Positions 1,744 to 58,168 of a stretch of 59,571 bases of DNA are shown in pieces. The stretch's first letter is position 1. Each line of letters starts with the position of its first letter. The notes under the pieces are model-generated. The model had not been told where the DNA came from. It was given only the letters and a program-made list of their open reading frames with translations, and did no database searches. The DNA is from a virus (taxonomy: Duplodnaviria; Caudoviricetes): positions 1 to 59,571 of the IMG/VR virus record IMGVR_UViG_3300037478_000385; one strand, given 5' to 3'. The position numbers and the translations under genes were made by a program.

Positions 1744-1900
1744 CCCGTGCCACACTGGTTTGGGTGACTCCACCCACGCGTAAACGCGCGGGCTTCCTGT
1801 GTCGGTGGCTAGGCCACGTCGCAGAGGGCCAGCCCGGCCCTGTTGAGGACGTTCGTCGCGCCGACGTGGTCCGCGTTTGCCGCGAACCCGCACGCCGTGC
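1744..1900 (-). ncRNA. Putative omegaRNA of TnpB-1; guide begins CCAAACCAGTGTGGCACGGG; 5-prime boundary uncertain
   Basis: Right-end hairpin and TCAC directly downstream of tnpB; established TnpB architecture. Confidence 0.6.
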
Positions 1901-3017
1901 ACTGGAACTTCGCTTGGGTGGCGCGGTTCTCCTTTGCGACGTGCCCGCATTCGGGGCACGTGCGGGAGGTGTTGCGCGCGTCCACCGGAACCACCAGGCG
2001 ACCGGCACTCTCAGCCTTGTTCGCCAGGGTTCCGAGGAACTGCGCCCAACCCGCGTCGAGGATGCTGCGGTTGAGTCCGGCCTTCGCGGCAGCACCGTTC
2101 GGCAGGAAGCTGCCGGGCGTGCTCGGGTCGGCCTTGGGTGCGGGGGCTTTGGTCATGCCCGTCGTGTTCAGCCGCTCGTGCGCGATCATGTCGTGGTCGG
2201 CGACGAGCGCGCGGGCGGTCTTGTGGTGGAAGTCGGCGCGCTGCCGCCGGATCTTTCCGTACAGCTTGGCGACCTTCCGGGCCGCTGCGCGGTGGCGCTT
2301 GGCGCGCTGCCTGGTCCGCTTGGGGAACGTTGCGAGGTGCCGCTGCGCTTCGGCCAGCTCGTCGGCCATCGCTTGGAGGAAGCGCGGGTTGGCGACGTGT
2401 TCGCCGTCCGAGGTGGTCAGGAAATGGGCAACGCCCATGTCGATGCCGACGATTGCTCCGGTGGGCGGCAACTCCTCGGTAGGAACGTTGTCGCAGGCGA
2501 GGACGACGTACCAGCGGCGGCCTTCCCGCTTGATCGTCACGGTCTTGACGCGGCCCTGCACGGTACGGTGCTGGTGCACGCGGATGTGTCCGACGCCTTG
2601 GAGGCGTACGCGGGTCTGCGGGTCGTGCGGGGTGGAGTCCCAGCGGCACCCGTCGCCGTCCTTGGGGAAGGTGACGGTGTCGAAGTGCCCGACACCCTTG
2701 AAGCGCGGGTAGCCCGGCGTCTGCCCGGCCTTGACGCGGCGGAAGAACGCTTGGAACGCCTTGTCCAGACGGCGCAAGGTGGCTTGCTGGGAGGAGAAGG
2801 ACCAGCGTCCTTGCCGCTCTGGGTCGAACGCGCGGATGTCCTTGAGCTGAGCGGACTGATCCCCGTACCGGACGGTGGTCTTCGAAGCATGCTGGTAGGC
2901 GTCTCGGCGCTCTTGGAGGGCACCGTTGTAGAGCGAGCAGTGGTCCCGCAGCATCTCGCCCAGCGCGACCGTCTGACGGGTCGTGGGGCGCAGGAGGAAC
3001 TTGTACGCGCGTATCAC
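1809..3017 (-). CDS. tnpB: RNA-guided endonuclease TnpB
   Basis: RAYKFLL N-terminus; RuvC GIDMG, HERL, NADHVGATN; CPECG/CTACG zinc finger. Confidence 0.95.
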   Translation of the reverse strand: MIRAYKFLLRPTTRQTVALGEMLRDHCSLYNGALQERRDAYQHASKTTVRYGDQSAQLKDIRAFDPERQGRWSFSSQQATLRRLDKAFQAFFRRVKAGQTPGYPRFKGVGHFDTVTFPKDGDGCRWDSTPHDPQTRVRLQGVGHIRVHQHRTVQGRVKTVTIKREGRRWYVVLACDNVPTEELPPTGAIVGIDMGVAHFLTTSDGEHVANPRFLQAMADELAEAQRHLATFPKRTRQRAKRHRAAARKVAKLYGKIRRQRADFHHKTARALVADHDMIAHERLNTTGMTKAPAPKADPSTPGSFLPNGAAAKAGLNRSILDAGWAQFLGTLANKAESAGRLVVPVDARNTSRTCPECGHVAKENRATQAKFQCTACGFAANADHVGATNVLNRAGLALCDVA

Positions 3018-4104: not shown

Positions 4105-4199
4105 GGTCGACTCCCGGGGTGCTGGTGGGGGCTACGGTGTGATCACCAGGGGGCGTGCCCGCGGTTTTGGCGGACGGTGGGCACGCCCCTGCCGCATGC

Positions 4200-4352
4200 T
4201 CAGGCGTCGGTGGCGTCGTCGGCGGGGGCCGGCCTGTAGCGGTCGGTGCGGTGTTGGCAGTCGCAGCTCGCGCCGGGGCCGCCTTGGCTGGTGCAGTGCT
4301 GGTCGGCGTCGAGCTGGTTGTCGGCAGCATGGGCGCAGCGGGCGCAGATCAT
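4200..4352 (-). CDS. Small Cys/His-rich protein
   Basis: MICARCAHAAD...CDCQHR; coupled to the upstream stop. Confidence 0.6.
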   Translation of the reverse strand: MICARCAHAADNQLDADQHCTSQGGPGASCDCQHRTDRYRPAPADDATDA

Positions 4353-5194
4353 TGGCCGGTCTCCTCGATCAGGTTGTCGATGGTGTGGTGGACGGGGATG
4401 CCCAGCTGGTGGGCGAGTGCGGTTTCGTGGTCGGCGCCGGGGCTGTGTCCGGGGATGCGGAGGACGGCGTCGGCGGCTTGGAGCCAGGAGAGGTCGAGGT
4501 TGAGCCACGCTTCGTAGGGGTGGTCGGTGGTCTGGATCCAGGGGTGTTTGAGGTGGGGCACCAGCGGGGCGTGGCCTGCGGTGAGCAGCTGGTCGGCTGC
4601 CTGGATGGCGGCTTGGATGCTGCGCTCGGGGTCGGCGCTGTAGGGGCCGGAGACGTACACGCGCAGCGGGCGGTCCGTGTGCTCTTGGGGCTGGTCGAGG
4701 GCTGCGAGGACGGCGTCAACGAGGGCGGGTGCCTCTGCGTAGCCCCAGGTGCCGGTGCCGTCGGTGGCGTGCCAGATGCGGGCGGTGTCGATGGCTGCCT
4801 CGAGCCGGGCGCGGAGCGTGGTGTCAGGATCGCCCGTGTGTCCTTCTGGCGGCTCAGGAGCGGTCGGTGCGTCGGATGATGCGCCCGTGGCGTGCGCGTC
4901 CGTCTGAGGCGCCGTGGGGCCGCTTGGCGGGGCATCGTCGAGGATCGCGTCGGCCAGCGCGAGAGCGTGGCGCATGTCTGCGCACGGCCAGTCTTCATCG
5001 GCGCACCACTGGCAGCCTTGCGCGAGTCCTCGGGTGTCGACGCGGTTGGGGTTTTCCTCGTGCAGCTCGGCGACGCGCTCCAGCCACGTGGCGAGCGGCT
5101 TCACGAGGCGTGGTGCGACCAGGATGGGCGCGCCGGGTTGGGTGAGCCGATCGGCTGCAGCGCGGAGTGTGTCGGTGGGGCTGAGGTCGGTCAT
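4349..5194 (-). CDS. Protein with C-terminal nucleoside-deoxyribosyltransferase-like (DUF4406-type) domain
   Basis: VYVSGPYS...PLVPH...DLSWLQAADAVLRIPGHSPGADHE...GIPV. Confidence 0.7.
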   Translation of the reverse strand: MTDLSPTDTLRAAADRLTQPGAPILVAPRLVKPLATWLERVAELHEENPNRVDTRGLAQGCQWCADEDWPCADMRHALALADAILDDAPPSGPTAPQTDAHATGASSDAPTAPEPPEGHTGDPDTTLRARLEAAIDTARIWHATDGTGTWGYAEAPALVDAVLAALDQPQEHTDRPLRVYVSGPYSADPERSIQAAIQAADQLLTAGHAPLVPHLKHPWIQTTDHPYEAWLNLDLSWLQAADAVLRIPGHSPGADHETALAHQLGIPVHHTIDNLIEETGQ

Positions 5195-5412
5195 CGCTGC
5201 TCCTGGGTGGTGTCGTTGTTGGGTTGGCGTGCGTGCCGGGCTTGGTGCTGCCGGTCTTGGCGTGCTGCGATGCGGGCCAGCATCAGGGCGAGGACGGCGG
5301 CCACGACGGTCTCGAACCACTGCCCGGCCAGGGCGTAGGCGACAGCGAGCGTGGCGAGAGCACCGGCTGCGGCGGCGGTGAGGAGCGGCATGGCGCCGTT
5401 GGTGCGGCTCAC
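5191..5412 (-). CDS. Small membrane protein
   Basis: Two hydrophobic segments; overlapping start/stop codons. Confidence 0.6.
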   Translation of the reverse strand: MSRTNGAMPLLTAAAAGALATLAVAYALAGQWFETVVAAVLALMLARIAARQDRQHQARHARQPNNDTTQEQR

Positions 5413-5612
5413 GGCTGCTCCTTGGCTGCTTGGCGGGCGGTGTCGCGGATCCCGGCGACCAGCTCCTCCACACGGTGGACGGGGATGTGGACGGTCATGG
5501 CGTAGCCGGTGGGGTCGTCGGTGAGGATGGCGAGGACGGGTGTGCCGTCGGCGCGGGTTTGGGCGGCGGTTTCGAGGTGGTAGCCGTCGGGGTCGGTGTA
5601 GTGGAAGGTCAC
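5409..5612 (-). CDS. Hypothetical protein
   Basis: VTFHYTDPDG...; GTGA coupling. Confidence 0.6.
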   Translation of the reverse strand: MTFHYTDPDGYHLETAAQTRADGTPVLAILTDDPTGYAMTVHIPVHRVEELVAGIRDTARQAAKEQP

Positions 5613-7229: not shown

Positions 7230-7522
7230 GCGGCGTGTGCCGGGGTGCGACGTGTGCCGATGAACCTGCGCTTGAGCGTTTTCAAGCGTCGCCTGGTGCC
7301 GTTGCCGCCACCGCTGTTCCACCACAACCAGGCCTGTATGGCGGCGAGCGCGGCGTGGACTCCGGCGATGAGCGGGTCGCCTCGGTGGGCCCAGCCTGCT
7401 GCGAGGAGTGTGTTGGCGATGGCGAGGAGGCCTTGGTAGGTGCGGAGGGTGATGCGGTGGGTGAAGAGCGCGAGGGTGCTGCATGCGATGAGGGTGAGGA
7501 CTGTGGTGGCGAGGGCGGTCAT
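7226..7522 (-). CDS. Membrane protein
   Basis: Three hydrophobic segments and a basic tail. Confidence 0.6.
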   Translation of the reverse strand: MTALATTVLTLIACSTLALFTHRITLRTYQGLLAIANTLLAAGWAHRGDPLIAGVHAALAAIQAWLWWNSGGGNGTRRRLKTLKRRFIGTRRTPAHAA

Positions 7523-7698
7523 GCGGCGTCCTTGGTGTCGGGCCGCGGTGGCGCGGCCTGGGCGGCGTATGCGTCGATGCGGGCGTCGTGGCTGGGGACG
7601 GCCAGCTTGCGGCCGCGGGGTGTGGTGCAGCGGGCGCCGGCTGGGGCGTGGCACCAGGGGCAGCGGACGCTGTGCGCGGGGTACAGCGGGCGGGTCAT
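7519..7698 (-). CDS. Phage zinc-finger protein
   Basis: VRCPWCHAPAGARC...H..R. Confidence 0.65.
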   Translation of the reverse strand: MTRPLYPAHSVRCPWCHAPAGARCTTPRGRKLAVPSHDARIDAYAAQAAPPRPDTKDAA

Positions 7699-8438
7699 GA
7701 CGCGGCTTCCTGCTCGGTGGTGTTGGGCTTGGTGCGGTGGATGGGGTCGAAGTCGTCCTGCGGTTCGGGCGTTTCGGCGAGTTGGGCTATCGCTGTGGCT
7801 GCTGCGGCGCGGCGGCGTTCGATCTCGCGTGCGGCGTCTTCGAGGTCGGCGGGGGGTTGCCCGGCGGCGGCGCGGCGTGCGTCTTCGAGGCGGGCTGGGT
7901 GGACGTCGGCGCGGTGGCGTCGGGGGTTGACGGTGCTGGTGCAGGTGCGGCCTGCTCGGGCGTGGCACATGGGGCAGGGGACGGCGAGGACGTTGACGGC
8001 GCCTGCCCGCGGGCCGGGGACGGCCTGGCCAGCGGCGGCGAGGATTGCGCGGGCCCGGCCGGTCGGCTGCTGCTCGCTGCGGCCGGGCGGCAGGGCTGGC
8101 ACGGGCCGGGGCTCGGTACGGCCGTCGGCAATGGCGCGGCGCTCAGCGAGGAGCGCAGCCCGGTACGTCGCGTCTCCGGTATCGCCAGGTGGTGGCTCGG
8201 CATCGCTGTGCTGGTCGAGACGATCGTTTCGGGCTTTGCGGATCTCGGTGATGATCTCGCCGACCGCGACGAAGGCGTGTCCGGCAGTAACACGGCGGTC
8301 TACGGCCGCGCGGGCTTCGTCGAGGCTGTACCCGCTGAGGACGTTGCGCCAAGCGTCGGCGGTGTACTCGTCGAGCTTCTGCTGAGGGCACATGGCGCGG
8401 ACGTAGCGGGTGAGGATGACTGCTTCCTGGTGGATCAC
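7695..8438 (-). CDS. Replication-associated protein (helicase loader/inhibitor-like N-terminus, zinc finger)
   Basis: ADAWRNVL..YSLDEARAAV; CPMCHA...C...HPAR; directly downstream of the initiator. Confidence 0.6.
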   Translation of the reverse strand: MIHQEAVILTRYVRAMCPQQKLDEYTADAWRNVLSGYSLDEARAAVDRRVTAGHAFVAVGEIITEIRKARNDRLDQHSDAEPPPGDTGDATYRAALLAERRAIADGRTEPRPVPALPPGRSEQQPTGRARAILAAAGQAVPGPRAGAVNVLAVPCPMCHARAGRTCTSTVNPRRHRADVHPARLEDARRAAAGQPPADLEDAAREIERRRAAAATAIAQLAETPEPQDDFDPIHRTKPNTTEQEAAS

Positions 8439-9466
8439 TGGTTCTCCTGTGCGTCTCGGGCTGCGGCTCGGGCCATGGCGCGGGCGAACATGTCGTCGTC
8501 GGCTTGCTGCTGGCGGCTACGGAAGGGGACGACATCGGCGCCAGCAGCGGCGGGGAGGTTGCCGTCCTGGGGCTCGGGCTGGGGGTCGGGTTCGTCGTCG
8601 TAGCAGCCCTTGTTGAGCCAGGTGGCGGGGTACTTCGTGTACTTGGGGTCCTGGCCGTGGCGTTCGCGGGCGTAGGTGGCTGCCGCTTCGGTGATCTTCT
8701 GCGGGTCGACGCCGGTCTTCACCGCGGCCTGCCATGCCTTGAGGGCTGCCTGCTTGTCGCGCTTCTTGGGGTAGGCGCGGTAGAAGGCGTCGAAGGCGGT
8801 GGGGTCTTCGGGCTGTCGGTCGGGCGCGACCTCGTGGCCGCCTGTGTCGAAGAGGAGATCGCCGCTGAGGGAGCCGTGTCCCGCATCGGCAGATGCGGAA
8901 GAGTCTTTGTCTTTCGGTTCGGTAGTTGGTTCTTCTTTTGGTTCGGCGGACGTCCACGTCCCCCCGCTGTGACGTCCACGTCCCCCCGCTGTGACGTCCA
9001 CGTCCCCCCGGACGTCCACGTCCCCCCGGACGTCCACGTCCGGTCGCTCCGGCGTTGACTCCTGCTCTGACCTGGCCTTATTCGCGCGGCGCATCTCAAC
9101 GCCGCGCGCACGGGCGGACGCCAGCGTCCGGGCGGACGTCCGCGTCCCCTCGTCGTCACCCGCGCGGCCCTTCGGAACACGGATCTCGACTGCCATGTCA
9201 TAGACCGTCGGCCGCTTGTCCGCGGCGATGTGCACGGCCTTGTCCTGGTCGCCCCGGCGGATCAGCTTGAGGTCTTCCAGCTCGCGAAGATCGCGGCGTA
9301 CTGAGCGCTCCGATTTGCAGGCGTACGCGGCCAGCCGGGCCAGCGACGGGAACGCGCCGCGGCCCTGCTTATCTGCGTGGTAGGCCAGCCCGATGAGGGT
9401 GGCAACCAGTTGGGCAGGCATGGGTGGAGCGAACTCAACCGCCCACTTCACTGCATCGGTGCTCAC
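8435..9466 (-). CDS. Replication initiator protein 1 (N-terminal HTH, internal iterons)
   Basis: LAYHAD..G.AFPSLARLA...SERSVRRDLRELE; FDAFYRAYPKK and YPATWLNKGCYDD. Confidence 0.85.
   Translation of the reverse strand: MSTDAVKWAVEFAPPMPAQLVATLIGLAYHADKQGRGAFPSLARLAAYACKSERSVRRDLRELEDLKLIRRGDQDKAVHIAADKRPTVYDMAVEIRVPKGRAGDDEGTRTSARTLASARARGVEMRRANKARSEQESTPERPDVDVRGDVDVRGDVDVTAGGRGRHSGGTWTSAEPKEEPTTEPKDKDSSASADAGHGSLSGDLLFDTGGHEVAPDRQPEDPTAFDAFYRAYPKKRDKQAALKAWQAAVKTGVDPQKITEAAATYARERHGQDPKYTKYPATWLNKGCYDDEPDPQPEPQDGNLPAAAGADVVPFRSRQQQADDDMFARAMARAAARDAQENQ
8900..9146. repeat. Iteron array and T-rich tract, putative origin 1
   Basis: GACGTCCACGTC at 8949, 8971, 8993, 9011, 9029; degenerate copies at 9117 and 9135; T-rich 8900-8945. 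Confidence 0.8.
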
Positions 9467-9538
9467 GTGCTCTCTTCTCGCTGCGGTGCGGGTAGGGACC
9501 GGGGCGGGGCCGCCACAATGGACGGCCCCGCGGTGCAG

Positions 9539-10282
9539 CTACGCCGCTTCCATATCGAACAAGGCGGCTTCCTCCCGGAGCCCGTTGAGGACCGAGATCA
9601 CCAGCCACGACGTGAAGTGCCGGTTGAAGTTGCCGACCAGAAGCGAGCTGGACGACGACAGGTGCAGCCCGTCGGGAAGCTCGCTGCGGCGGTGGTCGCC
9701 GTGCTTGCGCATGAACTCGAAGCAGCCCCAGTCGCGAAGCATCAGCCGGTGCTCGCCGTCCTCATCGCGGAAGCGCAGACGCGGGATGAATGCGAAGCGC
9801 TTCGCGCCTTTCGGTTCCGGCTTGCCGCTGTCGAACAGGGCAAGCTGTGGCGAGTCGGGGCTGTCGGGGTTGTGGTCGAATTCCATGTCGTACTGGTCCG
9901 GGTGGAGTACGGCGAGGGACAGCCGCTTGGCGTTGGCTTCCTTGATGGAGGCGACTTCGTACGGGCGCAGGAGCGCGGCCCGGCTGGTGCGCGGGTACTC
10001 CTTGCGGATGCAGGTGAAGGCGCCGTTGATGTGCTCGTGCGCGCCGGGGCTGCGGTCGCCTGCGAGCTTCCAGGAAGCGGGCCGGTGGTCCTTGGGGTTG
10101 CGCTCCAGATGGACGGTGTTCACGGACCATCGGGGCGGGGCGCCATAGCGGGACAGTGGGTAGATGCGCAGGAGTTGCTTGAGCTGGGGGCTGACGCCAG
10201 CGGAGCAGACGAATATGCGGCCGTCGCTGCTGGGCTCGGGGACGGTTTTGCCGAGCATCACGAAGTCGTCGATGGTGATCAA
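9539..10282 (-). CDS. Conserved hypothetical protein, possibly OB-fold nucleic-acid binding
   Basis: GKTVPEPS..GRIFVCSAG...LRIYP...D.RP.SW; TTG start overlaps the upstream stop. Confidence 0.6.
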   Translation of the reverse strand: MITIDDFVMLGKTVPEPSSDGRIFVCSAGVSPQLKQLLRIYPLSRYGAPPRWSVNTVHLERNPKDHRPASWKLAGDRSPGAHEHINGAFTCIRKEYPRTSRAALLRPYEVASIKEANAKRLSLAVLHPDQYDMEFDHNPDSPDSPQLALFDSGKPEPKGAKRFAFIPRLRFRDEDGEHRLMLRDWGCFEFMRKHGDHRRSELPDGLHLSSSSSLLVGNFNRHFTSWLVISVLNGLREEAALFDMEAA

Positions 10283-11301
10283 AGTTCGTCTGCCCCGTTC
10301 TTGAGGATGTCGCCATGGCAGGGCTCGGGTGCGCACCAGCAGCCGAGGGCTTTGCCCTTGAGCTCGTGCAACTTGTCGAGGAGGGACGGCTTATGCGGCA
10401 GGTAATGGCGCTCGTAATTGGCGATGACGGTGTCGCGGTCGCCGTCGCCGGGGAGTTCGAAGGGGTTACCCCAGGGACTGCGGCGGTCGATGCGGACATA
10501 GAGCCCGGCAGCGTCGGCCCATTCGATGAGGTTGTTGTGCGGGCCGCGCAGGGTCACGACGACGGTTTCACCGGACCGGAGTTGCTTGAGGAGGTCGCGT
10601 TCGTCGTCTGACCAGGTCGCGAAGATGCGTTCCTGGCGGATCTCTTCGAGGATCGGCTCGACATCGATTGAGTCGGGCATTGCCGCGGATGCCTCGCGAA
10701 GAAGCTCCTCGGTCAGGTGATGCAGAATGTCATCCTTAACATCACGCATCACCGTGCTCTGGTTGATGCCAAGGTGATCGGCGATTTGGCGCTGTGACCA
10801 TCCGGCGCGTGTCAGAAGGAGTGCCGCTACTTGCCGGACGTTGCGCCGGTGTTCGACGATGTCGCCGACCCACTTACTCACCGTCTGCCGCGTGACCCCG
10901 GAATACTTCGCGATCGTCTTCAGGTCGTAGTCCGGGTTCGACTCCGCGATCTCCCGCGCGATCGTCTTCAGCTCATCGCCCTTGATCCGGTCGCCGTGCT
11001 TCGCCGACAGGCTCGCGGCGAACAGCTTCGCCGGGACACCCTCCGGGACCTCCTGCCAGACGACCCGGATCTCATCCCGGAGTGCCTGCTTGTGGGCCTG
11101 CCACCGGTGCATGCCGTCGAGGAGCCGGTTCGTGTCGGGCTCCAGGACGATCGGCGGGAACTCGTCTCCGGCGTTGAGGGCTTCGGCGTAGCGGTTGACG
11201 GTGGCCTGGGACCACTCGACGCGGGGGTAGATGGTGGGGTCGTACACGACTTCGGAGACGTTGATGTCGGCCACGTGCTCTCTTTCCTCGGGTTGGTTCA
11301 T
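10279..11301 (-). CDS. ParB/Srx N-terminal plus HTH plus DUF4326 fusion protein
   Basis: FPPIVL...LLDGMHR; WSQRQIADHLGINQSTV; IDRRSPWGNPF...LKGKALGCWCAPEPCHGDIL. Confidence 0.85.
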   Translation of the reverse strand: MNQPEEREHVADINVSEVVYDPTIYPRVEWSQATVNRYAEALNAGDEFPPIVLEPDTNRLLDGMHRWQAHKQALRDEIRVVWQEVPEGVPAKLFAASLSAKHGDRIKGDELKTIAREIAESNPDYDLKTIAKYSGVTRQTVSKWVGDIVEHRRNVRQVAALLLTRAGWSQRQIADHLGINQSTVMRDVKDDILHHLTEELLREASAAMPDSIDVEPILEEIRQERIFATWSDDERDLLKQLRSGETVVVTLRGPHNNLIEWADAAGLYVRIDRRSPWGNPFELPGDGDRDTVIANYERHYLPHKPSLLDKLHELKGKALGCWCAPEPCHGDILKNGADEL

Positions 11302-11356
11302 GGCATGGCTGAATTACCAGGTCAGGGTGGATTTGCTGGCGCTCTGCCTACCCTTG

Positions 11357-11447
11357 ATCCTACATCAGGGTGACCGGTCAATGGATAGCTAAATGACGGC
11401 CGTGATGTGGCCCCCCGCTGGATAGGCATTGACCGGTCAGCTACGCT
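11357..11447. promoter_or_regulatory. Divergent promoters with two TGACCGGTCA palindromes
   Basis: Palindromes at 11371-11380 and 11430-11439 next to -10-like TAGGAT (minus) and TACGCT (plus). Confidence 0.65.
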
Positions 11448-11453
11448 GCTGAC

Positions 11454-11636
11454 ATGACCACGAAGGGACACACCGGCCGCGTGATCCGCCTCGACGACGA
11501 GACATGGGCGGACTACGGCGAGCTGTGCGCCGAGAAGGGCACCAAGCGGGCGACCGACGTGCGCATGTACATCAAGCGCGAGGTCGCCGAATGGCGCCGC
11601 CGGAAGGCCGCTGAGGAGCGCGCGTCCCGTCCGTGA
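11454..11636 (+). CDS. Small ribbon-helix-helix-like regulator
   Basis: RVIRLDDETWADY...RATDVRMYI; probably leaderless. Confidence 0.65.
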   Translation: MTTKGHTGRVIRLDDETWADYGELCAEKGTKRATDVRMYIKREVAEWRRRKAAEERASRP

Positions 11637-11710
11637 GCACGGCGTGCCGTACCGGCCGCACGGCCAGCGCGACACACCACCACGGGCCCCAGTCACAGCG
11701 TCGGCCCGGC

Positions 11711-11908
11711 TCACACATCCGCCCCGAGCCAACGCCGCAACCCAGCCCTGGCGTTCGCCAACGACCTGTTCCCACCAGATGGAGACGCAGGCACCGTCAC
11801 CGCACGCCCATCCCGACCCGTCACCCGGTAATGACCATTCCGGGCAACCCGCACCACAAAGCCCTGCCGCCGCAGAGCACGTATCAGCTGCTGCACTTCC
11901 TTGTTCAC
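11711..11908 (-). CDS. HicA-like protein
   Basis: KEVQQLIRALRRQGF.V...NGHYRV...VTVPASPS. Confidence 0.65.
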   Translation of the reverse strand: MNKEVQQLIRALRRQGFVVRVARNGHYRVTGRDGRAVTVPASPSGGNRSLANARAGLRRWLGADV

Positions 11909-12120
11909 GCGATGTGTCCTGTCTGGTAGGCGTCGGCCGCTTCTGCGGCCTGGGTGGCGAGGGCCTGCTCTGCGCACACCTTGTGGGCTGGTTTCTTGCG
12001 GGAGTCGCGGAGGTGGGTGTCCCCGCCGCAGTAGCGACAGGGCGCCGGTTCCCAGGCCCAGTGCCGCGGGTGCCGCCAGTCGAGGAGCACCGGCTCCCCG
12101 GCCGGCGGCACGGCGGTCAC
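11905..12120 (-). CDS. Small zinc-binding protein
   Basis: PCRYCGG...HKVCAE. Confidence 0.6.
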   Translation of the reverse strand: MTAVPPAGEPVLLDWRHPRHWAWEPAPCRYCGGDTHLRDSRKKPAHKVCAEQALATQAAEAADAYQTGHIA

Positions 12121-12515
12121 GACACGCCCTGCTTGCGGCGCTGGTTGGCTTGCCTCTCGGCCGAGGCGCACCCCGGGCAGATCGGCTCGTGCGCGCGGCG
12201 GTGACGCTTGGCGCCGGCCTCCGTACCGCACGGGGCCGGGGCCTGCGGCAGCCTGGGTGGTGTGGTGGTTTTACCGCGGGCAGCAGCCCGCCAAAAGCGG
12301 TGCCGCTCATCCTCGGACAGGCCACCCCACACACCGTCGGCCTCACCGTGCTCATCCGCGTGCGCCTGGCACGTCTGTATGACGGGGCAGCGCATACAGA
12401 CCGCCTTGGCATCTTTGATGCCCAGCTCATCGCTGGGGGCGGGGAACATCAGATCCGGGACTTCGCGGCATGCGGCGGCGGTACGCCAGTCGCGTGCGAA
12501 TGCTCGGGTGCTCAC
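12117..12515 (-). CDS. whiB: WhiB-family transcriptional regulator
   Basis: AAC...AKAVCMRCPV...C...GVWGGLSEDER. Confidence 0.9.
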   Translation of the reverse strand: MSTRAFARDWRTAAACREVPDLMFPAPSDELGIKDAKAVCMRCPVIQTCQAHADEHGEADGVWGGLSEDERHRFWRAAARGKTTTPPRLPQAPAPCGTEAGAKRHRRAHEPICPGCASAERQANQRRKQGVS

Positions 12516-12922
12516 CGTGCAGCCTCCCGCATCACCCGATCCGCCAAATGGCCGCCCGCGACGCACCCGGGCATGCCGCACGCATTCCTGACCTGGCCCT
12601 CCGGTACGCGGCCATGATGGATCCGGAACGCCACCCGGTACGCCGACCCCTGAAAGCCGCGGTGCCGCACTACCGGCACACCGGACGAGTTACGCCACCC
12701 GGTCCAGTCCAGATGCCCACCACCGGCGCACGCGGCATGAGCCCAGTAGGCGGCCTCGACACTCTGGTACCGCGGCGAGCTGCCGTACCGGTGGGGCGCG
12801 GGAAGCCCCAATGCCTCGCGTGTGAGCTGCACGGTCTGCGGACGGACACGGAGTTGGCGGGCGATATAGATCTGTGGAACCCCAGCGTGCAGGAGCTCTG
12901 CGATGTCGTCGCGGATCAGCAT
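12512..12922 (-). CDS. HTH plus degenerate HNH/His-Me-like protein
   Basis: IARQL HTH; GGHLDWTG; RVAFRI; CGMPGCVAGGHL. Confidence 0.6.
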   Translation of the reverse strand: MLIRDDIAELLHAGVPQIYIARQLRVRPQTVQLTREALGLPAPHRYGSSPRYQSVEAAYWAHAACAGGGHLDWTGWRNSSGVPVVRHRGFQGSAYRVAFRIHHGRVPEGQVRNACGMPGCVAGGHLADRVMREAAR

Positions 12923-13149
12923 GCTGTCTCCCACCTGGCGCGCCAACGGTTCACAGTCCGCTCGGCCACACCGATCCGTGCGGCGATCTCACGGAACCCG
13001 AGCCCCGCCTGGGTGAGGACCTGGGCGGCGAACTCCCGCTCGGCGTCGGTGAGCTCGGGCAGGGGCCGACTGTCGGCGAGATGCCGGCCGATAGCGATCA
13101 GGTCGATCGTGTGACCGCGGTAGCGGGTGGTGGTCTGATAGGTGCTCAT
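12916..13149 (-). CDS. Small HTH protein
   Basis: GLGFREIAARIGVAERTVNRWR. Confidence 0.75.
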   Translation of the reverse strand: MSTYQTTTRYRGHTIDLIAIGRHLADSRPLPELTDAEREFAAQVLTQAGLGFREIAARIGVAERTVNRWRARWETAC

Positions 13150-13718
13150 GGGCGGGTCACCGCCTGCCGCTGCTTGGCTTTCTGCTCGCGCTTGCACGCT
13201 TCGCAGTAGGCGCGCCCGTCGGCCTCGTACCGGCCGTGCTGGGCCTGGTCGTGCCCGTGCACGCACTGCTCTGGCCGGGCCTGGCCACCGGTGAGGTACC
13301 GCAACTGCTCGCGGGTCCGCATCCGGCCGACCTCGTCGTCGACATGCTCGGGTGCGACGCAGTGCTGGTGGCCGCACTCGGCGAACACATAGCCGATGGG
13401 GTCCCTTCCGGTGCGGATGCGGAAGGCGACGGCGGCGGCGCTGTACGACTTTGGCCAGTACCGCAGGACTGGAGTGCCGGAGCATTTGGCGCGCTCGCCG
13501 GTCCACTCCAGGTGCCCGCCGTCGGGCCGGGTGTTGGCCTCCCACTTCTGCTCGAGGGTGAGCGGCTGGGGGATGTGGACACGGTTCGGGATGCGGAGTT
13601 CGGCGCGGATGCGGCGTACACGGACGCGGTCGGCGCGGAGTTCGCGGGCGATGGCGGTGTTCGATTTTCCTTCGCGGAGGGCGGTGATGATCTGGTCGCG
13701 GGTGGCTTTCTGGTTCAC
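13146..13718 (-). CDS. HTH plus degenerate HNH/His-Me-like protein (paralog)
   Basis: SNTAIAREL; GGHLEWTG; VAFRI; CGHQHCVAPEH; C-terminal CVHGH...CEAC. Confidence 0.6.
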   Translation of the reverse strand: MNQKATRDQIITALREGKSNTAIARELRADRVRVRRIRAELRIPNRVHIPQPLTLEQKWEANTRPDGGHLEWTGERAKCSGTPVLRYWPKSYSAAAVAFRIRTGRDPIGYVFAECGHQHCVAPEHVDDEVGRMRTREQLRYLTGGQARPEQCVHGHDQAQHGRYEADGRAYCEACKREQKAKQRQAVTRP

Positions 13719-13774
13719 CGTGTGGTCACCGCCTCGCGGTCGGGCCGCTGGCAGCCGGGCTGGCGGTAGACAGG

Positions 13775-14053
13775 TCAGGCATCTGCGGCCTCCCGGGAAT
13801 CCCGTGCGGTGCCGCATGCGACGCAGGTGGCGGTGCCGGCCTGGTCGTCTTCGTGCGCCGTGTACCGGACGCACCGGTCGCAGTCTGCGATGACCACGAG
13901 GTACGCGCCGGCGGGGTCGAACGTGGCGTGTACCGGCCGCGGCGTGTACCGGTGGCGCAGGCACCGCACGACCGCAGTCAGCCGGACATGCACCGCCCAC
14001 ACCAAGACCGCGAGGCCAACTCCGGCCGCAGCACCAGCAGCTTGAGTGATCAC
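13775..14053 (-). CDS. Membrane-anchored zinc-ribbon protein
   Basis: N-terminal TM segment; CDRC/CVACG. Confidence 0.5.
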   Translation of the reverse strand: MITQAAGAAAGVGLAVLVWAVHVRLTAVVRCLRHRYTPRPVHATFDPAGAYLVVIADCDRCVRYTAHEDDQAGTATCVACGTARDSREAADA

Positions 14054-14349
14054 GACTTGGTCTCCTCACGCTTGTCCTGGCGGCTCTCCTGCCAGCGCTC
14101 GCCCGCGGTGACGGCCGGGCCGTCGATGCCGCACGCCTGATCCAGACGCTTCTGCAAGGACCGGTTGCGGCACTCAAGCCGCCAGTTCGCGGCGTCTGCC
14201 TCGGCGTATTGGCGGGTGATGGTTTGGCGGTCGGCGTACTCGGTCTCAGCGACCCGCGCTGCGGCCTCGGCGTGCTCGCGCATACGGTCGAGCCGGTCAC
14301 GCAGATCAGCGATGTCACGCCGGTACCGGCGTCGGCTAACGAAGAGCAC
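14050..14349 (-). CDS. Hypothetical coiled-coil protein
   Basis: ORF in operon with RBS. Confidence 0.6.
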   Translation of the reverse strand: MLFVSRRRYRRDIADLRDRLDRMREHAEAAARVAETEYADRQTITRQYAEADAANWRLECRNRSLQKRLDQACGIDGPAVTAGERWQESRQDKREETKS

Positions 14350-15079
14350 CGGTGGCCTCCTTGAACAGGATCAGTGGCCACTGCGGCCGGACGGTCGGGG
14401 CGAGGTGTTCCTTGCCGGGTGTGCGCGCGAAGTACTCCTGCCGGGAGGCGGCCTGCTCGGCTGCCCACCCGATCTGCTGCTCGTGCAGCTCGGCGAGGGC
14501 CGCCCGGCCTACCTCCGGGTACTGCTGGGCGATACGCCACGCGACCCGGCACGCGGCGATCGCGTCGGCGTCAGCCGAGTGCGCGCCGGTCAGGATCACG
14601 CGGTAGTGGGCACACAGCGCTTCGAGCTTCCGCGACCCGGGCCTGTAGCGGTCGTATTGCCGGTCCAGGACCATGGGGTCGATGACACGGAGCTGGTCCG
14701 GGCCGATGATGTCGACCAGCGGCTGTATACCGTGCCGCCGCGCCTCACGATCGAGCAGCGTCAGGTCATACGCGGCGTTCATGGCGACGATCGGGATGCC
14801 GTCGCGCTGTACCTGCGCGAGCGCGGCCACGATGCTCTCGACGACCTCGGCTGCCGGGGCCCCCTTGGAGCGCGCCCGATCGGTGGTGATGCCGTGGATC
14901 TTCGCCGCGGCGTCGGGGATCTCGACACTGGGGTCAGCGAGCCACGACGCGGACTGCACCGGATGTCCACCACCACACTGCACAACCGCTGCGGTCACGA
15001 TCCGGTCAGACTCGACATCCAGGCCAGTCGATTCGCAGTCGAAGCCGGCCATCCTCTGCTCACTCCATACAGTGCTCAC
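14336..15079 (-). CDS. DnaQ-like (DEDDh) 3-5 exonuclease
   Basis: FDCESTG, MNAAYDLTLL, AHSADADA motifs. Confidence 0.9.
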   Translation of the reverse strand: MSTVWSEQRMAGFDCESTGLDVESDRIVTAAVVQCGGGHPVQSASWLADPSVEIPDAAAKIHGITTDRARSKGAPAAEVVESIVAALAQVQRDGIPIVAMNAAYDLTLLDREARRHGIQPLVDIIGPDQLRVIDPMVLDRQYDRYRPGSRKLEALCAHYRVILTGAHSADADAIAACRVAWRIAQQYPEVGRAALAELHEQQIGWAAEQAASRQEYFARTPGKEHLAPTVRPQWPLILFKEATGALR

Positions 15080-20300: not shown

Positions 20301-20540
20301 GTGATCACCCTAGACGCCGCGAGGGAGCTGCCTGTGCCCGACAAAACCAGAATCCTCACCGCTGACCTGGGACCCCGCATCGCCGCATTCACCTGCTGTA
20401 TCGACGGACAGCCGGCCGCTGTCGTGAACACCGCCACGGGCCATGACGCGGGCATACGGGCACAGGCCGCGCTGGTACTCGCCCGCGCCGGACTGGACGC
20501 CGACCTCATCATCGGAGCGCTGCATGGGATACGTAGCTGA
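20301..20540 (+). CDS. Hypothetical protein upstream of integrase
   Basis: ORF overlapping the int start. Confidence 0.55.
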   Translation: MITLDAARELPVPDKTRILTADLGPRIAAFTCCIDGQPAAVVNTATGHDAGIRAQAALVLARAGLDADLIIGALHGIRS

Positions 20541-21780
20541 CCGCTGGCACAAGTCCCGCCCCAGGCCCGGAGAGCCGGAGTGCGGGGAGCACAAGGGCAA
20601 GGTGGCCTCGAGCTCGCACGGGAAGGGCAAACGCTGGCAGGCCCGCTACGACGGGCCAGACGGACGCGAGCGGACCTCCCTGCACGCCACCCGCGCGGAG
20701 GCCGATCGGGAGATCGTCAAGCAGGAAGGCGCGAAGCTCACCGGGTCCTGGCTCGACCCCAAGGCCGGCCGCGTCACCGTCGAGACATTCGCGCTCGAGA
20801 CGTGGCTGCCCGCGCAGGGCATCATCGGCCGCACAGAGACCGAATACCGGGGCGTCCTGGACCGCTACCTGATCCCCGAGTGGGGGCCACGGGAGATCCG
20901 CTCCATCAAGCCCAGCGAGGCGGGGGCGTGGCAGCAGAAGCTGACCACCAAATACAAGCTGTCAGGCAGCTACCCGAACCGGGTCGCCCGCTACGTGCGC
21001 AGCGTCTTTCGGCTCGCAGTCGTCGACCGCGTCCTCGCTATGTCCCCGTTCGACGGGATCACAGCCCCCACCTTGGTGGAGTCGACGGTGCACCCGCCGG
21101 ACGTCGTCGAAGTACGGCAGATCATCGAGCACGCCTACAAGCCCCTGTGGGCAGCCCTGTTCGAGCTGGACGCGCTCACCGGACTCCGCTCGGGCGAGAT
21201 CCGCGGCCTGCGCCTGGACAAGGTCGACTTCCTGCGCAAGGTCGCGCGCATCGAGCAGCAGCTGGTGTACGAGAAGGGCCGCGGTCTGTACTTCGACGAG
21301 CTGAAGACCGGTGCCGGCCGCCGTGTGCTGCCGCTCAACCAACGCGCTGTGGACTCGCTGGCGGCGTACGTGGCGAAGTACCCGCCACCCTCGCAAGGCC
21401 CCTGGGCGGGGCTGATCTTCACGATGCCGGGCGGCCTGCCGATCGGTGAGAGCACGATCGACTGGGCGCTGAAGAACACCTGCCGGAAAGCCGGTTTAGG
21501 TGCGCGGCATATGCATGAGCTGCGGCACCACTACGCGAGCGTACTCATCGCAGGCGGCGAGAATCCGAAGGTCGTCTCCAAGCGGCTGGGGCACAAGGAC
21601 GTGATGATGACGATGCGGACGTATGCGCACCTGTTCGCGGAGGCGGAGGAGCAGACCCGTGACGTTCTGGATGCGGCATGGGCTGTGCCGGGTGAGACTG
21701 AGGGTGGATCTTCCGGAGCGGGCGGAAGGATTCCGGAAGCCCGGAGCGCGGAGGCGGACATTGTGCAGCTCAGGTCTTGA
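20524..21780 (+). CDS. int: Tyrosine integrase
   Basis: TGLRSGE, LKT, HELRH, LGH, YAH catalytic motifs. Confidence 0.95.
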   Translation: MGYVADRWHKSRPRPGEPECGEHKGKVASSSHGKGKRWQARYDGPDGRERTSLHATRAEADREIVKQEGAKLTGSWLDPKAGRVTVETFALETWLPAQGIIGRTETEYRGVLDRYLIPEWGPREIRSIKPSEAGAWQQKLTTKYKLSGSYPNRVARYVRSVFRLAVVDRVLAMSPFDGITAPTLVESTVHPPDVVEVRQIIEHAYKPLWAALFELDALTGLRSGEIRGLRLDKVDFLRKVARIEQQLVYEKGRGLYFDELKTGAGRRVLPLNQRAVDSLAAYVAKYPPPSQGPWAGLIFTMPGGLPIGESTIDWALKNTCRKAGLGARHMHELRHHYASVLIAGGENPKVVSKRLGHKDVMMTMRTYAHLFAEAEEQTRDVLDAAWAVPGETEGGSSGAGGRIPEARSAEADIVQLRS

Positions 21781-57737: not shown

Positions 57738-58016
57738 ATGGAGAAAAACGAGATCAGCAGCCATGAAGTGCTCGTCTACCGCGAACTCGCCAAGGGTGAA
57801 TGGATCACCAGCAAGGCCATCGCAGAGGCAGCCGGAGTCGCGCCCCGCACTGCTCGCGCGCACGCCTTGAAGCTTGTCCGGCTCGGCATCGTCGATCAGG
57901 CCGAGGTCTTCCCCGCCCACCGCTACCGGCTCAGCACCCACGCCGCGAAACGGAACCGGGGCTACGCCGACCGCATCACGCGAGCAGCCGAAGTGCTCGG
58001 CATTCCGCTGGCCTGA
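57738..58016 (+). CDS. Winged-HTH protein
   Basis: WITSKAIAEAAGVAPRTARAHALKLVRLGIV. Confidence 0.7.
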   Translation: MEKNEISSHEVLVYRELAKGEWITSKAIAEAAGVAPRTARAHALKLVRLGIVDQAEVFPAHRYRLSTHAAKRNRGYADRITRAAEVLGIPLA

Positions 58017-58168
58017 CCTACGCCAGCCGACTAGGGCCCTCATCTTCGGATGGGGGCCCACTGCTATGCCGTCCGGCCCGGGAACGCAGGAAGGCCGCCC
58101 GGAGCTGGGGGCTCCAGACGGCCGATGCCACACACGGGGGCGTGGTGGCTGTTCTTCCCGCGGTCAGG

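Follow-up and report, generated by a model that had tools for sequence, protein, structure and literature searches.

We describe here a two-gene cassette in a 59,571-bp virus genome (IMG/VR record IMGVR_UViG_3300037478_000385; Caudoviricetes), referred to below in its full length as the window, which encodes a protein ending in a DUF4326 domain and a second protein that is confidently predicted to be a tandem of two oligonucleotide/oligosaccharide-binding (OB) folds. The window has direct terminal repeats and a GC content of ~67%, and is the complete genome of a temperate actinobacterial phage. Comparison with other loci establishes that the conserved unit is the DUF4326 domain plus the dual-OB protein, and not the three-domain fusion that carries DUF4326 in this phage. 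The two proteins probably constitute one conserved machine. In both cells and phages, genes for dual-OB proteins regularly accompany those for the DUF488/DUF4326 group of enzymes, and the cassette of the window is the phage DUF4326 version of that pairing. We know of no demonstrated activity for either DUF4326 or DUF488, and this locus provides an unusually clean handle on both in the form of an obligate, highly conserved partner. Our best reading, which we hold with about as much confidence as doubt, is that of a DNA-directed nucleic-acid-processing enzyme whose two components are encoded by the cassette.

The pairing was analyzed in a set of comparison loci (designated below by L numbers where they need to be told apart). 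In all 32 other loci, which comprise 23 viral loci, eight bacterial genomes and the cultured cyanophage KBS-S-2A, a same-strand DUF4326 open reading frame (ORF) is found immediately upstream of the partner homologue. This arrangement was found in 18/18 viral loci, in 8/8 bacterial-genome loci, where it occupies prophage-like regions, and in 5/5 distant viral loci that have a GC content of 39-49% and encode partners that are only 30-35% identical to that of the window. In KBS-S-2A the DUF4326 gene CPKG_00025 overlaps CPKG_00024, which codes for a 237-aa protein that matches the partner family profile with a probability of 99.5 and an E value of 4e-22 (hhalign). A 4-nt overlap of stop and start codons is kept in 11 of the 18 viral loci. 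All ten upstream ORFs that were scanned have a C-terminal Pfam DUF4326 domain and differ in their N-termini (DUF3102 in three, no Pfam family in seven), and the ParB and helix-turn-helix (HTH) portion seen in the window is present in only 3/18 viral loci and 3/8 genome loci. No further neighboring gene family is common to more than four of 27 loci. The initial annotation had regarded its proposal as refuted if the two genes did not occur together elsewhere; they do so in every one of these loci. One variation on the arrangement is seen in L008, where a fusion that is 89% identical to that of the window is separated from the OB gene by two small ORFs (~4148-4522 and ~4480-5004) and the start of the OB gene still lies in a 4-nt overlap.

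A tblastn search with the partner against 50,697 cultured phage records gave no real match at E <= 1e-5 or at E <= 1, a result that is unreliable as the search also missed the divergent KBS-S-2A partner, which was found only by profile comparison. Pfam DUF4326 is present in 1845 of these 50,697 records, and none of the 1845 gave a partner match by tblastn. A megablast search of positions 7500-12500 against cultured phages likewise returned no match, and no viral loci were found for the distant partner representatives P0236, P0268 and P0227.

In the window, the first gene of the cassette (10279..11301, minus strand) encodes a 340-aa fusion protein and the second (9539..10282, minus strand) its 247-aa partner, with a GC content at third codon positions (GC3) of 0.83 and 0.86, respectively. 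The two genes share a TTGA tetranucleotide that contains both the TTG start codon of the partner and the TGA stop codon of the fusion (CTTTGATC; 10279..10282, minus strand), which is an overlap of the translational-coupling type. Conservation of the first residues in homologues (residues 1-7; D6, F7) supports the TTG start. Both the overlap and the 247-aa protein with its KTVP, VCSAG and RIYP motifs can be read in the sequence as initially annotated, the motifs in their fuller form being KTVPEP, VCSAG and RIYPL.

The OB assignment of the partner, which had been made from motifs, agrees with a high-confidence AlphaFold2 model (predicted local distance difference test score, pLDDT, 94.8; predicted template modeling score, pTM, 0.90) that in fact contains two OB folds in tandem. 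OB1 covers ~aa 1-96 (9995-10282, minus strand) and OB2 ~aa 106-243 (9554-9967, minus strand). No Pfam or NCBIfam family matched the partner, including the Pfam families for HIN and single-stranded-DNA-binding protein (SSB), and the best Foldseek matches are to HIN, CST, RPA and TEBP structures. The whole protein aligns with HIN 4jbm_B (Z 8.0, 161 residues aligned; Foldseek 8i6k_A, E 9.5e-4), OB1 with RPA 3e0e_A (Z 7.8) and PriB 4fdb_A (Z 7.7) at a root-mean-square deviation (rmsd) of 2.0-2.1, and OB2 with RPA70 DBD-C and Teb1 OB-C (Z 6.0-6.3), values that lie near the background of the tool and thus show the fold class rather than the family. The partner therefore shares a tandem OB architecture with HIN-200, RPA, PriB, SSB and telomere end-binding proteins but differs from them in having only 4-11% identity and another set of invariant Cys, Asp, Arg and Glu residues, such that the resemblance is one of fold only.

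The partner family is large, with 618 clusters at 90% identity, many of which are ~60% identical to the copy in the window, and 269 representatives at 50% identity. Among 99 diverse members, C26, R39 and G217 are invariant and P15, Y41, P42, D65, R67, E69, S70, S122 and N218 are nearly so. The Cys, Asp, Arg and Glu residues among these, together with the invariant Cys, His and Arg of DUF4326 (below), look like active sites or sites for a specific ligand. A C-terminal HNH nuclease domain is fused to the partner in 22 of the best 120 clusters and in 8/10 long representatives of 27-60% identity, a recurrence that points to DNA as the ligand of the partner; the partner of the window is without this domain. 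Longer proteins in which the partner is fused to other sequence were also sought; no DUF4326-OB fusion was among them, and the single 439-aa protein obtained is probably a gene-call artefact. Prediction of a complex between fusion aa 196-340 and the partner gave a score of 0.00, which counts neither for nor against binding.

The upstream gene product combines three domains, as had been described in the initial annotation, with matches of hidden Markov models (HMMs) for DUF4326, HTH and ParB-like domains in agreement with the predicted fold (AlphaFold2 model built from 41 homologues; pLDDT 91.7). The same three-domain architecture recurs in no fewer than 120 clusters of homologues that are 58% or more identical. 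Searches of PDB sequences with the fusion and with the partner yielded nothing useful, and a profile search gave weak ParB matches only (E 0.016). The N-terminal domain (~aa 5-105; 10987..11289, minus strand) has a ParB/Srx fold of the ParB-CTPase type, as judged from structure matches and motifs. It superposes on KorB 8qa8_A with a Z value of 11.0 (rmsd 2.1, 88 residues aligned), on sulfiredoxin 6ky4_A with 10.3 and on PadC with 10.2; Foldseek returned 22 matches at E <= 1e-3, those listed being ParB, Noc and KorB (ParB 7bnk_B, E 3.7e-6). The PHROG family phrog_1033, 'ParB-like', matches aa 6-143 at E 2.7e-12. Pfam PF02195 gave no match for the fusion of the window at E <= 0.01, and precomputed PF02195 matches exist for some close homologues. 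Alignment with Myxococcus ParB indicates that the GERR of the P-motif is replaced by G-M-H-R (G63-M-H-R66) and the box-I QPR by YPR. The nucleoside triphosphate (NTP)-binding GxxR is retained, and Tyr and Met occupy the positions of the box-I Gln and box-II Glu. Because of these two replacements, specificity for cytidine triphosphate (CTP) and its hydrolysis are doubtful. The fusion is additionally unlike a canonical partition ParB in that it lacks the Glu of GERR and the box-I Gln, and ends in DUF4326 without a ParB dimerization domain. There is no parS, and no ParA-type gene is present among the annotated neighbors, where no search aimed at ParA was made. An archaeal ParB-DUF488-HTH fusion has been reported to bind CTP in a description of ParB-CTPase-fold fusion proteins (bioRxiv 10.1101/2025.10.10.680097). 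The fusion of the window resembles those proteins in joining a ParB/Srx fold with GxxR to an HTH and a DUF488-clade domain, and differs from the archaeal protein in having DUF4326, a different domain order and the Tyr and Met at box-I and box-II.

The HTH (~aa 146-225; 10627..10866, minus strand) is defined by a match to HTH_23 (aa 157-186, E 9.1e-11) and by its likeness to the DeoR DNA-binding domain 7bhy_A (Z 6.8). It is followed by DUF4326 (~aa 242-340; 10282..10578, minus strand), which matches phrog_464 at E 1.8e-24 and Pfam PF14216 at E 1.3e-21 (aa 269-334; score 77.5 bits, cut-off 25). In the whole-protein model, aa 242-340 superpose on the RapZ C-terminal domain 5o5s_A, of the rhodanese-phosphatase fold, with a modest Z value of 5.1 (rmsd 3.2, 85 residues aligned). 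The protein contains both the LLDGMHR motif of the ParB/Srx domain and the GCWCAPEPCHGD motif, whose key residues do not vary across the 41 aligned homologues. Within DUF4326, the residues invariant in these homologues are R270, D272, R273, WGNPF (277-281), C321, C323, C328 and H329. Comparable DVR...SR and C.E...CHR motifs occur in the DUF488 ORFs of L047, and we take the Cys...Cys-His and Arg-rich motifs to be the defining motifs of the DUF488/DUF4326 group. The DUF4326 domain of the window shares the Arg-rich segment and C...CH motif with these DUF488 sequences, and it differs as a subfamily that is defined by its dual-OB neighbor.

DUF4326 also occurs as a stand-alone gene. In Klebsiella phage phi1_146041 (L067, PP889490.1; 222-2887), a 111-aa DUF4326 protein starts 2 nt past the SbcC-like gene of an SbcD/SbcC pair, and at least seven other Klebsiella and Escherichia phages of 157-160 kb have the same DUF4326 neighbor according to their annotation lines. 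In Pseudomonas phage PaMx74 (L029, NC_028809.1; 2417-4012), a 98-aa DUF4326 gene lies between genes for a MazG-like pyrophosphatase and a gp2.5-like SSB; the latter is not homologous to the dual-OB protein (probability 0.1). A DUF4326-like gene is also found in L064 (10295-10600), ~4.3 kb downstream of a homologous replication initiator, and this locus contains no dual-OB match.

The partner also has cellular relatives. Partner aa 11-193 match the PADLOC model PDC-M19B (PDLC04508) at E 5.5e-9, and a genomic PDC-M19B protein matches the partner profile over 222 columns with a probability of 98.8 (hhalign; E 4.9e-17). The fusion protein gave no match to any PDC-M19 model. The PDC systems of Payne et al. 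(bioRxiv 10.1101/2024.01.29.577857) are untested candidates chosen because they are embedded in restriction-modification (RM), BREX or DISARM loci. The PDC-M19B family is carried by ten of 401 sampled Actinomycetota genomes; in one of these, that of a Streptomyces, the copy belongs to a prophage and to the same family as the copy in the window. The adjoining gene is DUF488 in eight of the ten and DUF4326 in two. Three of the DUF488 neighbors were scanned and match Pfam at E 1e-27 to 3e-29, one of them as an HTH-DUF488 fusion. The cassette is therefore like PDC-M19 in that the homology of its partner to PDC-M19B extends along the entire protein, with an enzyme of the DUF488/DUF4326 group adjoining in both cases. 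It differs in that the cellular enzyme is mostly DUF488 and often convergent, whereas the phage DUF4326 gene is co-directional, overlaps by 4 nt and is fused to ParB-HTH. Additionally, the copy in the window is located in a phage early operon and not in an RM, BREX or DISARM locus, and neither the full PDC-M19 gene set nor a cellular defense-locus location is found for it. As the OB family matches PDC-M19B, a link between the cassette and virus-host conflict gains indirect support. One Actinomycetota locus (L035:429-2719) contains consecutive minus-strand genes for DUF488, PDC-M19B and an HD plus HD_assoc protein (dGTPase-like), which gives it the flavor of a defense island.

A parallel pairing is represented by the Pfam family DuOB (PF22557), in which a dual-OB protein of ~210-230 aa lies beside one or two DUF488-type genes in 5/5 loci. 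DuOB is the nearest named cluster to the partner in the Atlas (0.86). Homology of the partner to DuOB was rejected at the level of sequence, since the protein of the window gave no match at E <= 5 and hhalign a probability of 0.5; among 99 members of the partner family, 98 gave no match to the DuOB HMM and one matched at E 0.0086. The two families differ further in that DuOB and PDC-M19B-family genes occur in different genomes. In L047, L048, L050 and L051 the DuOB gene is preceded by two tandem DUF488-like paralogues, which may correspond to the DUF488-N3 subclades that Pfam labels 'active' and 'inactive'. Matches to DUF488 occur in seven of 14 control genomes, E. coli included, and the archaeal control genome Methanosarcina acetivorans has matches both for DUF488 and for the family of the dual-OB partner.

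The cassette appears to have entered its present location as a mobile unit. The gene immediately downstream encodes a replication-initiation protein (8435..9466, minus strand; phrog_270, E 3e-29; Pfam HTH_36), and the leftward early region also includes genes for a RecT-like annealing protein, a DnaQ-like exonuclease, an HNH protein and WhiB. Upstream and divergent from the cassette is a gene of 60 codons (11454..11636, plus strand) whose GC3 of 0.90 indicates real coding. None of 15 viral loci with a related replication initiator carries the cassette beside the initiator, and in three of them (L059, L060 and L061) the initiator and a homologue of the 60-aa gene face each other directly, ~140-215 nt apart. 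The GC content of the two cassette genes is 0.637 and 0.660 as compared to 0.684-0.720 for the neighbors, with the fusion gene within the lowest 4.6% of 1-kb windows. The existence of cassette-less relatives of the initiator locus, the 60-aa gene that faces the initiator in some of them and the lower GC content of the cassette thus support the view that the two genes were inserted as a mobile cassette that now separates the divergent promoter region from the replication initiator. The initial annotation had described the cassette as inserted in the replication operon.

The regulatory part of that annotation fared less well. The divergent intergenic region (11302..11453) contains two exact TGACCGGTCA palindromes (11371-11380 and 11430-11439), both of which are arms of a 13-nt inverted repeat and are the only copies in the window. 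The upstream regions of seven DUF4326 homologues (six ParB-HTH fusions plus the gene of L020) contain no such conserved operator, and the intergenic segment next to the start of the 60-aa gene is common to cassette-less relatives. Because the operator does not recur upstream of homologues and the regulatory segment is partly shared with relatives that have no cassette, the description of the cassette as self-regulated is unsupported. Likewise, the cassette had been said to be driven from a divergent promoter that faces a small ribbon-helix-helix (RHH) gene. The small divergent gene is real, but a scan of 9300-12000 for the sigma-70 consensus detected no promoter, which is a poor test for actinobacterial promoters, and the RHH assignment has no HMM support, as Pfam gave no match at E <= 5 and PHROGs, NCBIfam and PADLOC likewise gave none. 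In an Atlas language-model look-up, nine of the ten best named clusters belong to the RHH clan (0.92-0.93), such that an RHH-like identity is a lead only. On the other side of the cassette, a perfect 11-bp GC-rich hairpin without a U tract (9504..9531, minus strand) lies 8 nt past the partner stop codon and ahead of the initiator gene. Its stem is present in both the minimum-free-energy and centroid folds of 9467-9545 (minus strand), with a z-score for the whole stretch of only -1.46, and it is possibly a terminator or attenuator.

Where phage regulators are visible, the pair lies on the lytic side of the switch. In L002 and L003 it is divergent from a repressor gene with an integrase gene beyond, and in L024 it is divergent from a repressor-family gene. 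Genes for replication and recombination are also found in the neighborhood, namely those for the initiator, RecT and the DnaQ-like exonuclease in the window and for RuvC and primase in L013 and L020.

As a working model, we propose that the catalytic part of the machine would be the C-terminal DUF4326 domain, with its predicted RapZ-C/DUF488-like fold, invariant Arg-Asp-Arg segment and Cys...Cys-His motif. In this phage, the ParB/Srx domain of the NTP-binding type and the HTH would tether the enzyme to DNA. The dual-OB partner may bind single-stranded DNA (ssDNA), a junction of single- and double-stranded DNA or a DNA end and hand this substrate to the enzyme. The pair would be produced by coupled translation as the first products of the phage's early replication operon, and would act early in infection. 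The chemistry would most likely be Cys/His-dependent, with a terminal phosphate or ribose-phosphate-linked group being removed from DNA ends or adducts or transferred, and its purpose may be to keep phage DNA fit for replication and recombination under attack by the host.

Several points weigh against this model. Catalysis, DNA binding and a physical complex are inferred, as is any DNA-modifying, defense or anti-defense activity of the kind put forward in the initial annotation, and the suggested substrate follows published predictions. The fold match of DUF4326 to RapZ-C is modest, the best whole-protein match of the partner (Z 8.0) is near the background of the tool, and OB folds are known to bind RNA, proteins and sugars as well. 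In cells, the genes for OB and DUF488 proteins converge at six of nine loci and run in the same direction at three of nine, which would be unusual for subunits of one enzyme. Finally, the phage is without a canonical Pfam SSB, leaving room for a plain SSB role of the partner.

This last point leads to an unlikely alternative, which is that the cassette is a replication accessory without new chemistry. The OB protein would then be the phage SSB, the fusion an origin- or operator-binding organizer or regulator, and DUF4326 a domain for binding or dimerization only. Such a role would fit the position of the cassette immediately upstream of the replication initiator, the best superpositions of OB1 on SSB, PriB and RPA, the gp2.5-like SSB gene that adjoins the stand-alone DUF4326 gene of PaMx74, and the combination of ParB and HTH, a classic DNA-organizing architecture. 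It also fits the result that Pfam SSB (PF00436) has no match anywhere in this complete phage genome at E <= 0.01, as compared to matches in 10/14 control genomes. However, what is conserved is DUF4326 plus OB rather than ParB/HTH plus OB, with N-termini that vary, and the invariant Cys, His and Arg of DUF4326 and Cys, Asp, Arg and Glu of the partner are unlike generic ssDNA binding. The ~60% identity of partners across many contigs is far above that typical of phage SSBs, and neither the HNH fusions nor the DUF488-linked homologues that are cellular defense candidates suit an SSB. Related phages, moreover, lack the cassette and replicate by means of an initiator from the same family.

A narrower proposal, which we regard as less probable again, is that the pair counters immunity based on ADP-ribose or NAD. 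In that case it would strip adducts of the ADP-ribose type (for example those from DarT-like ssDNA ADP-ribosylation) or degrade ADP-ribose-derived signals, with the dual OB holding the modified ssDNA. DUF4326 has been linked by prediction to ADP-ribose-derived phosphates on the basis of fusions with Macro, NADAR and SLOG domains (PMC9503650, PMC7824862), and a further report describes amoeba-virus homologues of the anti-Avs protein ORF83 that carry a C-terminal DUF4326 (bioRxiv 10.1101/2025.06.06.658234). The proposal is also in line with the selection of the cellular relatives of the OB family for being embedded in RM, BREX or DISARM loci, as well as with the early-operon, lytic-side position near a repressor and integrase (L002, L003) or a repressor-family gene (L024). 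On the other hand, no Macro, NADAR, SLOG or ADP-ribosyltransferase domain was found in the cassette and nothing observed ties the host to such a defense. The proposal is a special case of the nucleic-acid-processing enzyme in which the substrate is chosen by analogy only.

More speculative, and with a slim chance of being correct, is the idea that dual OB plus DUF488 or DUF4326 is a universal end- or adduct-processing machine employed on both sides of the conflict. The cellular DUF488 version (PDC-M19) would mark or damage invading DNA, and the phage DUF4326 version, loaded by an NTP-gated ParB clamp, would erase that mark before replication starts; it could be, for example, an adduct of the ribose-phosphate or ADP-ribose type that is carried by ssDNA at replication origins or ends. 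Slimmer still are the prospects of a phage-borne defense or exclusion module in which the pair, like its PDC-M19 relatives in cells, is directed against rival phages or mobile DNA and HNH-fused versions act as the nuclease: the homology to the PADLOC candidate PDC-M19B, the HNH fusions in the partner family, the cassette-like mobility (absence from relatives, lower GC) and the presence in prophage-like regions of eight bacterial genomes favor it, but PDC-M19 is itself only a candidate, the partner of the window has no HNH, the enzyme is DUF4326 and not DUF488, and in loci with a visible repressor the cassette runs with the lytic early genes and diverges from the repressor, and therefore is probably not expressed in the lysogen.

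Parts of this system are already known, as databases annotate the fusion as a 'DUF4326 domain-containing protein' and the OB family is a component of a PADLOC candidate. The Pfam names DuOB and DUF488-N3a/N3i suggest that a link between DUF488 and dual-OB proteins had been noted by Burroughs and Aravind in 2023. In the literature searched, we found no description of the strict phage DUF4326-dual-OB pairing, of the PDC-M19B homology or of the cassette-like insertion at the replication operon. The pair is present in phages, including one that has been cultured (KBS-S-2A), and with DUF488 in bacteria and an archaeal control genome. If the cassette does encode a DNA-end- or adduct-processing enzyme, then it would represent a new biochemical activity in phage replication or counter-defense and would also assign a function to the PADLOC defense candidate PDC-M19.

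The remainder of the phage genome provides context for the cassette. A tyrosine integrase is encoded at 20443-21780 (plus strand), and the close protein relatives of the phage are found in genomes of Streptomyces, Micromonosporaceae, Streptosporangium, Nocardioides and Kribbella, as well as in one metagenome-assembled genome of Gemmatimonadetes. Upstream of the cassette there are HNH-like genes (12512-12946 and 13146-14552, both minus strand), followed by a WhiB gene (12117-12581). The HNH-WhiB order is also seen in L057, L062 and L063, with tandem HNH matches in L057 and L062, and in L054 tandem HNH matches lie upstream of the replication initiator. Farther along the leftward gene block of the cassette, a 374-aa protein (4349-5473, minus strand) matches phrog_355, 'nucleoside 2-deoxyribosyltransferase', over aa 265-364 (E 8e-21) as well as Pfam DUF7768 and DUF4406, and is possibly a nucleotide- or NAD-related enzyme. 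A 402-aa protein (1809-3017, minus strand) matches PHROG transposase families (phrog_506, E 5e-86) and represents an insertion-sequence-type gene within the phage. The phage additionally encodes a tRNA-Arg (anticodon TCG; 57934-58027, minus strand) that has an unusual length of 94 nt.

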